A stretch of DNA of 64,000 nucleotides. Source: a virus. Lineage: Duplodnaviria > Heunggongvirae > Uroviricota > Caudoviricetes. Shown here one piece after another: positions 37,628 to 38,407 of the stretch (its first letter is position 1; each line of letters starts with the position of its first letter). The notes beneath the pieces were generated by a model. The model ran no database searches and was not told the DNA's origin. It saw only the letters and a program-made list of their open reading frames with translations. The stretch lies in the IMG/VR virus record IMGVR_UViG_3300024272_001997; one strand, 5' to 3'. A program made the position numbers and the translations under genes.

Positions 37628-38407
37628 TTACTTTTTGAAAATTTTAGAAATAGCATTACATACTTTTGCGATACACTTATGGGGTTTCTTAGTCTTAGTA
37701 TTCTCAATTACATTATCGGTCAAAGTCCAAACTTCTTCGATGGGCATATCGTAAGGAATAATCATACATCCATGATTTCCCCAATCTTCACCCCAAGAGT
37801 TCTGGACCTTCCAGCCACGCTCATCCCAGCCATAGATGAACATACAATGTCCGCCATCGTAGCCTTTAAATTCAGTGCGTAGAACACCTTCATCATCAAC
37901 TTCCATATCAGCGAACCAGCACATAGCCATTAGAACAGGATTGCCAGCCATCAAAGCAGCCTTTACTGCATTGAAACTGGTAACACGAGCATACTGACTA
38001 ATGCGGTTGGGATAACCTTGCTTGAATAATTTCTTACCCTGACGCTCATAAAGATCAATCATTTCGGGGACTTCACGATTGTAAGGGAATAAATCATATT
38101 TGACGTCGCCATATTTACGAACAACTTCAAGAGCATCACGCATAATCATACCTGACTCTTTATAGTCAGAAGTATTACGGTTTCCGTAAATATAGCCTAC
38201 ACTCATTTCACTGGGATCACCAGTTTGAGTATAGTTGTAGTATTCGATAATACTAGCTAAAGAGTGAGCGACACAGCTGCCGACCGCACCCTAATTCTTA
38301 ATACCACGCATCTTCAGCTCAAATTCAGCGGGGAATTCTACGCCAGAAGCGGTGTAAACCAATTTGTAATCTCGGGCATCATAACCTGAAAATATAGCAC
38401 CCTGCAT
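37628..38407 (-). CDS. papain-like (C1) cysteine peptidase whose catalytic-site Gln is encoded by TAG
   Basis: ATG at 38405-07; ...GIKN(TAG)GAVGSCVAHSLAS... = papain Q-G-x-C-G-S-C-W-A motif with TAG at the oxyanion-hole Gln; C-terminal GGHCMFIYGW...VQNSWGEDWGNHGCMI. Confidence 0.7.

Follow-up and report, generated by a model that had tools for sequence, protein, structure and literature searches.

An in-frame amber codon at the oxyanion-hole glutamine position of a papain-family peptidase gene in a phage predicted to use genetic code 15

The stretch of phage DNA analyzed here (64,000 nucleotides, hereafter called the window) contains a gene for a papain-like peptidase whose reading frame includes the triplet TAG. 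An earlier note on this DNA had placed this triplet exactly at the glutamine that is invariant in C1 peptidases ahead of the nucleophile cysteine. The locus raises the question of whether the TAG is a genuine sense codon of a functional gene, which amino acid it specifies and whether its position at an active-site residue is the result of selection. The reading to which we assign a probability of about 90% is that the window belongs to a large uncultivated phage using genetic code 15, in which TAG encodes Gln while TAA and TGA terminate translation, and that the peptidase gene is intact, its TAG having arisen by drift.

The peptidase gene and its active site

The peptidase is encoded on the minus strand by a frame of 259 codons, with the ATG at 38405-38407 and the TAA stop codon at 37628-37630. 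The N-terminus of the translated product is MQGAIFSG... The only in-frame TAG of the gene is codon 39, which is found in the context MRGIKN-TAG-GAVGSCVAHSLAS, and the C-terminal part of the product includes the motifs GGHCMFIYGW and NSWGEDWGNHGCMI. The start codon, the TAG context and the C-terminal motifs described earlier were all found, and the coordinates and sequence given for the gene were right. The possibility that the frame is closed upstream of the TAG was also considered, and the frame was found to be open, the stretch from the ATG to the TAG containing neither TAA nor TGA. The list of standard-code ORFs at this locus includes one ORF of 41 residues and one of 192 residues and nothing else, the latter beginning at Met68 (ATG at 38206). 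Standard-code gene callers would split or truncate the peptidase gene, which is relevant for annotation. The positions of the gene, of its active-site codons and of the other features mentioned in the text are given in Table 1.

Table 1. Positions of features in the window and, where a locus is named, in related loci
Feature	Position	Strand	Basis or remark
C1 peptidase CDS, 259 residues, without propeptide	37628-38407	minus	Sequence and translation, PF00112
Oxyanion-hole Gln (papain Gln19 equivalent), TAG codon 39	38291-38293	minus	Alignment to NQGxCGSC
Nucleophile Cys (papain Cys25 equivalent), codon 45 TGT	38273-38275	minus	Alignments; invariant
Catalytic His in GGHCM (papain His159 equivalent), codon 187 CAT	37847-37849	minus	Alignments; invariant
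Asn of NSWG (papain Asn175 equivalent), codon 203 AAC	37799-37801	minus	Alignments; invariant
tRNA-Thr(UGU)	38436-38511	minus	28 nt upstream of the peptidase ATG
121-residue gene	37249-37614	minus	Directly downstream of the peptidase gene; own AAGAGG ribosome-binding site
tRNA-Ser(UGA)	37121-37209	minus	Downstream of the unit of peptidase and 121-residue gene
Amber-suppressor tRNA, anticodon CUA	36256-36330	minus	ARAGORN; 1.3 kb downstream of the peptidase gene
Array of 39 tRNA genes	32658-51007	minus	ARAGORN
tRNA-Trp	50933-51007	minus	ARAGORN
Glycosyltransferase	45184-46383		TAG inside the GT2 domain
Gene with TAG 12 codons ahead of the next stop	39453-39860		
Diversity-generating retroelement	19326-22139	minus	Related copies to 23754
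Retroelement reverse transcriptase	20994-22139		GC 23%
Retroelement template repeat	19326-19451		
Retroelement variable repeat	19537-19662		3' end of the target gene
Retroelement target gene	19520-20713		
Decayed third repeat copy	22361-22486		
Paralogous target-like gene	22528-23754		
833-residue protein with major-vault-protein domains	11028-13529		MVP_shoulder (E = 8e-22), Vault_3
1393-residue Ser/Thr-rich protein	13658-17839		Internal repeats
Sigma-70 family factor	494-1414		
Thg1-type tRNA-His guanylyltransferase	3143-3928		
TROVE/Ro-like RNA-binding protein	28286-29797		DUF2828, phrog_850
EcoRI-like adenine methyltransferase	31119-32309		
Four low-GC paralogues	6985-7779, 27421-28326, 51699-52493, 56170-57030		GC 28-34%
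335-residue peptidase-like gene	53861-54868		phrog_34186, phrog_4191 ('peptidase'); weak Peptidase_M28 match
Membrane-protein context, locus L002	3801-4214		One membrane protein with 2 TAGs
Membrane-protein context, locus L004	3875-4682		
Membrane-protein context, locus L005	3804-4607		
Other lysis-like context of a homologous C1 peptidase, locus L021	4068-5822		
Other lysis-like context of a homologous C1 peptidase, locus L022	2728-4989		

With the TAG translated as Q, residues 33-217 of the peptidase matched the PF00112 (Peptidase_C1) profile with a score of 60 bits (gathering cut-off 20.7, E = 4.7e-16), and a match to phrog_16701 'peptidase' was also obtained (E = 1.4e-21). The database contained 448 homologues at E < 1e-5, many of them 260-275 residues long and encoded on contigs of up to 320 kb. 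Among solved structures, the best sequence match was xylellain of Xylella fastidiosa (PDB 3ois, approximately 20% sequence identity), with many cathepsin K entries and papain ranking after it. For the homologue P0001, which is 91% identical to the peptidase, the AlphaFold model had a pLDDT of 92.3 and a pTM of 0.88. A Foldseek search with this model gave C1 peptidases as all of the top 50 PDB matches, the best of them being 3ois with a TM of 0.73, and papain and cathepsins were found as well. The papain-like C1 identity proposed earlier is borne out by the profile match and by the fold of the P0001 model. Thus, the peptidase is a member of the papain family (C1), and the two-lobed papain fold is predicted for it from the model of its close homologue.

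The peptidase shares with the C1A peptidases of MEROPS (PF00112) this predicted fold, a Gln six residues before the Cys, the Gln-Cys-His-Asn set and the NSWG..WG motif. Unlike the classical C1A enzymes, it has no signal peptide, its Gln is encoded by TAG, and its C-terminus (residues about 244-258) is a basic helix that those enzymes do not have. In addition, no I29 propeptide was found in a Pfam search of the peptidase, in which about 33 residues precede the mature-domain motif. Its homologues start at the same point, i.e., at the mature domain.

The alignment to the structure database was repeated with X in place of the TAG, so that the translation as Q could not bias it. The alignment was unchanged: the X faced the Gln of V-K-N-Q-G-x-C-G-S-C in xylellain and cathepsin K, C45 faced the nucleophile Cys, and H187 and N203 faced the catalytic His and the NSWG Asn that orients it. 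The TAG is therefore located on the Gln of the Gln-to-Cys motif and not outside it, six residues ahead of C45, at the papain Gln19 position named in the earlier note. Q39, C45, H187 and N203 were invariant in alignments of 26 and of 41 homologues. Judged by its sequence, the gene is intact and its product is predicted to have a normal Gln-Cys-His-Asn active site.

The column of codon 39 was Q in all of the 26 aligned full-length homologues. Evidence for Gln was limited to DNA-verified CAG/CAA codons and to bacterial homologues. Two database entries, P0121 (reverse transcriptase, 96% identical, locus L019) and P0006 (peptidase, locus L018), come from translation of TAG as Q and were not reproduced under table 11; they were excluded, since their Q residues are themselves code-15 translations of TAG, which would make the argument circular, and are not independent evidence. 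At the DNA level, CAG or CAA was found at codon 39 in 17 loci (12 from IMG/VR and 5 from ENA/Logan) of the 18 related ones that were checked, most of which have no TAG in the gene at all. The nearest loci, which are 85-86% identical in nucleotide sequence, read AAC-CAG-GGT in place of the AAT-TAG-GGT of the window. One relative (L018) has a TAG at codon 2 of the peptidase gene and CAA at codon 39. Approximately 3 of the 259 columns are (nearly) invariant Gln columns in the C1 family (Q39, Q61 and Q202), and a random hit on one of them would have a chance of about 1%. With CAG/CAA in the relatives and a tRNA-CUA encoded in the window, the site can serve, as had been suggested, as a valid single-residue check of the reading of TAG as Gln.

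Genetic code 15 and the suppressor tRNA

If TAG is read as a sense codon, the split ORFs of several conserved genes in the window become joined. Apart from the single TAG of the peptidase gene, in-frame TAGs were found in the genes of the reverse transcriptase (11), the 1393-residue repeat protein (three), the retroelement target (two) and a 142-residue protein (five), as well as in endonuclease paralogues and in the glycosyltransferase gene. They are concentrated in low-GC genes, namely those of the reverse transcriptase, the 142-residue protein, the endonuclease paralogues and fibre-like proteins. In the reverse transcriptase, 2 of the 11 TAGs (Q94 and Q253, in the motifs AIML-Q-IE and NY-Q-VFP) are located at positions where each of the 21 aligned homologues, bacterial ones included, has Q.

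A comparison of called genes with four related loci paired TAG with TAG 21 times, with CAG/CAA seven times (5 sites) and with GAA twice, both GAA pairings coming from one 40%-identical pair. In orthologue pairs with at least 58% identity, all seven TAG changes (at 5 sites) were to CAG or CAA. This comparison was confined to called genes because an all-frames ORF BLAST against the related loci was too noisy; pairings of TAG with W, L and K that appeared in it were spurious and originated from off-frame and antisense ORFs. Stop-to-stop ORF statistics under alternative codes were non-discriminating, since any stop codon made sense lengthens ORFs. When TAG is treated as a sense codon, 42 of the called genes end in TAA and 16 in TGA, which follows from the gene-calling mode. 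In one gene (39453-39860), the TAG 12 codons ahead of the next stop could be either a sense codon or the true end of the gene.

No release factor or aminoacyl-tRNA synthetase genes were found among the approximately 30 window ORFs that were scanned, and pyl genes were likewise not seen. The phage is absent from the annotated phage collection searched, in which a DNA search matched tRNA genes only; the best match of the peptidase in this collection was 34% identical, and the matches in Lak phages were 25-27% identical. Code 15 with phage-encoded suppressor tRNAs has been described for several clades of gut phages, among them crAss-like and Lak phages (Borges et al., bioRxiv 10.1101/2021.08.26.457843), and Gln at TAG was seen by metaproteomics in two crAss-like phages (Peters et al. 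2022, PMC9523058). The phage of the window resembles these phages in its large genome, many tRNAs and metagenomic origin, in the alignment of in-frame TAGs of conserved genes with Gln, in having its own tRNA-CUA suppressor and in the patchy distribution of TAG, which is dense in tail-fibre-like, homing endonuclease and retroelement genes and absent from many others. It differs from them in that no 'code-change module' with a release factor or synthetase was found among the window ORFs scanned, and in that the recoded gene considered here encodes a C1 peptidase, the word 'peptidase' occurring 0 times in the searched text of 10.1101/2021.08.26.457843.

The tRNA-CUA is presumed to decode the TAG of the peptidase gene. 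The label 'Pyl' that ARAGORN gave to it stems from the CUA anticodon alone. The gene is kept in the same relative position in three relatives (L014, L015 and L018), and all four copies have U1 mismatched with position 72, G2-C71, G10, G73 and the loop CUCUAAA; the copy of the window also has U35 and A37. The bacterial Gln identity set consists of G73, U1-A72, G2-C71, G3-C70, G10, U35, G36, A37 and U38 (PMC9976931). Most of the Gln identity elements that an amber anticodon permits are present in the tRNA-CUA; G36 and U38 are absent from it, as is G3-C70 from the window copy. The Trp determinants A1-U72, A9 and C35 are also absent. The tRNA-CUA is 63% identical to phage tRNA-Gln genes, 71% to tRNA-Trp and 73% to a tRNA-Met. 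Since it is no closer to tRNA-Gln and does not have G36, U38 and G3-C70, its Gln identity rests mainly on the codon alignments, and it is mainly from these that Gln is predicted at TAG.

The tRNA-CUA and the tRNA-Trp of the window have the D-arm GTTC-AAxGGxxA-GGAC in common, and their anticodon loops are CUCUAAA and CUCCAAA, respectively. Sequence comparison suggests at most that the tRNA-CUA was derived from a tRNA-Trp, as the 71% identity does not clearly exceed the 73% to tRNA-Met. A comparable molecule is the amber suppressor su+7 of E. coli, a tRNA-Trp that bears a CUA anticodon and receives Gln from GlnRS (Yaniv et al. 1974, as cited in PMC2965240 and PMC9976931). The tRNA-CUA is like su+7 in that its D-arm and anticodon loop are of the Trp type, in having G73 and in the CUA anticodon, with U35 as the dominant GlnRS determinant, and it is likewise predicted to be read as Gln. 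However, su+7 originated in the laboratory by point mutation of a host tRNA, whereas the tRNA-CUA of the window is phage-encoded and has a different acceptor stem, with U1 mismatched with position 72. By this analogy, the tRNA-CUA may be a natural counterpart of su+7.

In an uninfected cell with the standard code, translation of the peptidase would end at residue 38 without yielding an enzyme. Expression of the suppressor tRNA and its charging with Gln, for which the glutamine-charging machinery of the host is the most likely candidate, would allow a full-length active peptidase to be produced. In this scheme, the charging enzyme, the timing of peptidase expression and the substrate of the peptidase are inferred. 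It had been proposed that the activity of the enzyme depends on the suppressor; the dependence on suppression holds, but its scope is wider, as all synthesis past residue 38 and not catalysis alone would be affected.

Gene neighbourhood and other features of the window

The peptidase gene is embedded in a tRNA array both in the window and in its close relatives. The array of the window covers nearly all amino acids in addition to the CUA suppressor, and all of its tRNA genes are located on the minus strand. Small genes, the peptidase gene and the glycosyltransferase gene are interspersed in it. The 121-residue gene has orthologues with 93-96% identity in L014 and L015 and adjoins the peptidase gene in L014-L018; it gave no Pfam match and no PHROG match.

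A different arrangement was found in L002, L004 and L005 (59-64% identity), in which tail-fibre-like genes immediately precede the peptidase gene and two small membrane proteins immediately follow it. Comparison of these membrane proteins with PHROG and Pfam gave no holin match. In the Thermoanaerobacterium phage THSA-485A, the gene of a 34%-identical C1A peptidase abuts a GH25 endolysin, and the 753-residue 'endolysin' of the Alicyclobacillus phage MMB025 is composed of an N-terminal C1 domain, a glycoside-hydrolase-like domain and PG_binding_1. The likeness to the MMB025 protein consists of its PF00112 domain, which is about 29% identical over half its length, and of the lysis context. In contrast to it, the peptidase of the window is a single-domain protein with no recognisable cell-wall-binding or glycosidase domain, and its gene lies among tRNA genes with no recognisable lysis genes adjoining. 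By analogy with these phages, the peptidase could tentatively be regarded as a lysis-associated cell-envelope enzyme, a role to which we give slightly less than even odds. The link to lysis is contextual, since the neighbouring membrane proteins have no holin match.

The window also contains tail genes and a diversity-generating retroelement. Adenines of the template account for most of the mismatches between the template repeat and the variable repeat of the latter (A>G 18, A>C 6, A>T 5); a decayed third copy of the repeat and a paralogous target-like gene were also found. The 833-residue protein with major-vault-protein domains is an unusual cargo for a phage and is 99.5% identical in the relative L019. 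A repeat module of the 1393-residue protein (…GYYESNN.G…SYA…) recurs in L005, in a protein that is tail-fibre-like. The gene of the 1393-residue protein is absent from L019 (elsewhere 93-97% identical); this region is variable, since the gene is missing there, and probably receptor-binding.

The Thg1-type enzyme and the Ro-like protein suggest RNA- or tRNA-centred accessory functions in addition to the tRNA array. The four low-GC paralogues have repeated CxCxCG...SCGC zinc-ribbon motifs and a C-terminal Vsr/DUF559-like endonuclease motif and are probably mobile homing endonucleases. Several of them have an in-frame TAG, and the TAG of the paralogue at 27421-28326 faces R, Q, K or E in the other paralogues. 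The 335-residue peptidase-like gene, which contains no TAG, bears no relation to the C1 enzyme.

Alternative readings of the amber codon and its meaning

It could be supposed that a CAG codon was turned into TAG by a nonsense mutation, or merely appears as TAG through an error of sequencing or assembly, and that the gene is a pseudogene that is dead or dying, or is expressed as a truncated product from the ATG at 38206; the CAG of the nearest relatives is a single transition off, and the longest standard-code ORF has only 192 residues. However, an independent JGI metagenome contig (L024, Ga0233386_1035010), one of two metagenome contigs found in an exact-pattern scan for the TAG or CAG allele, has the TAG of the window at this codon, while the same scan of the viral contig collection gave no match. 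This contig is 94.7% identical to the window over 1028 bases, i.e., it differs at 5% of bases, and the 139 codons across the TAG show nine synonymous changes and one nonsynonymous change. In addition, 18 synonymous changes and one nonsynonymous change separate codons 1-38 from those of L014 (17-19 and one, respectively, for L014-L017), and the corresponding numbers for codons 40-230 in L014-L017 are 51-56 and 16. Since nearly all the change in codons 1-38 is synonymous, these codons are under strong purifying selection, and the frame upstream of the TAG is translated. The independent contig and the pattern of codon changes exclude a sequencing error and argue strongly against a pseudogene. A product starting at Met68 would also be devoid of Gln39 as well as of the nucleophile Cys45, in-frame TAGs are present in many further conserved genes of the window, and a suppressor tRNA is encoded in the window, all of which makes a defective or misread gene extremely improbable. 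Translation of the TAG as another residue (Trp, Lys or pyrrolysine), which would place a non-canonical residue in the oxyanion hole, is likewise very improbable. The D-arm and anticodon loop of the tRNA-CUA are like those of tRNA-Trp, to which it has the higher identity (71% vs. 63% to tRNA-Gln), and LysRS can mischarge amber suppressors (PMC2965240). Against this, TAG occurs in three all-Gln columns, one in the peptidase and two in the reverse transcriptase, and in orthologues with at least 58% identity it is exchanged with CAG/CAA and never with TGG or AAR. The tRNA-CUA has U35, G73, G2-C71 and G10 and none of the three Trp determinants listed above, and an E. coli tRNA-Trp with the CUA anticodon receives Gln (PMC2965240). 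Furthermore, the window shows no pyl genes, and proteomics of other phages gave Gln at TAG (PMC9523058).

With TAG accepted as Gln, the codon could still be a selected translational gate that holds back a propeptide-less and possibly lytic enzyme until the suppressor tRNA accumulates late in infection. The start of the peptidase at the mature domain would fit such a gate, as would the position of the gene in relatives between tail-fibre-like genes and small membrane proteins, its proximity to the GH25 endolysin in THSA-485A, the domain fusion in MMB025 and the preferential recoding of lysis genes in a published analysis (bioRxiv 10.1101/2021.08.26.457843). If this were true, the amber codon would replace the propeptide as the safety catch on a ready-to-fire, potentially self-destructive cell-envelope protease, and the peptidase family would be an unrecognised class of recoding-gated C1 endolysin. 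We consider a selected gate unlikely. The TAG is not conserved among the DNA-checked loci, and the location of the peptidase and suppressor tRNA genes in one co-oriented tRNA array argues against a large gap in timing; the adjacent membrane proteins of the relatives match no holin family. The peptidase gene has seven Gln codons, and the share of TAG among all Gln codons of the window is about 8% (about 33 of 417 in an approximate gene set), so a TAG at one of the seven positions corresponds to expectation and is unremarkable. Since the close relatives keep CAG and the TAG site is not conserved, the TAG of the peptidase most likely results from neutral CAG-to-TAG drift in an already recoded genome and is no purpose-built switch. 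Such drift would require one C-to-T transition, which would be synonymous in the genome of the window.

The reassignment of TAG to Gln is already known as code 15, and the peptidase site is a neat confirmation of it that is no surprise to specialists and leaves what is known of phage recoding unchanged. It provides a clean internal control for calling code 15, as the stop codon is located at a residue that a well-studied enzyme family needs, and the protease activity could report amber suppression by the phage tRNA, which would be a simple experimental handle. In addition, papain-type peptidases were found in lysis-like contexts of several phages, which may merit separate study; papain-family domains may be an under-recognised endolysin module.
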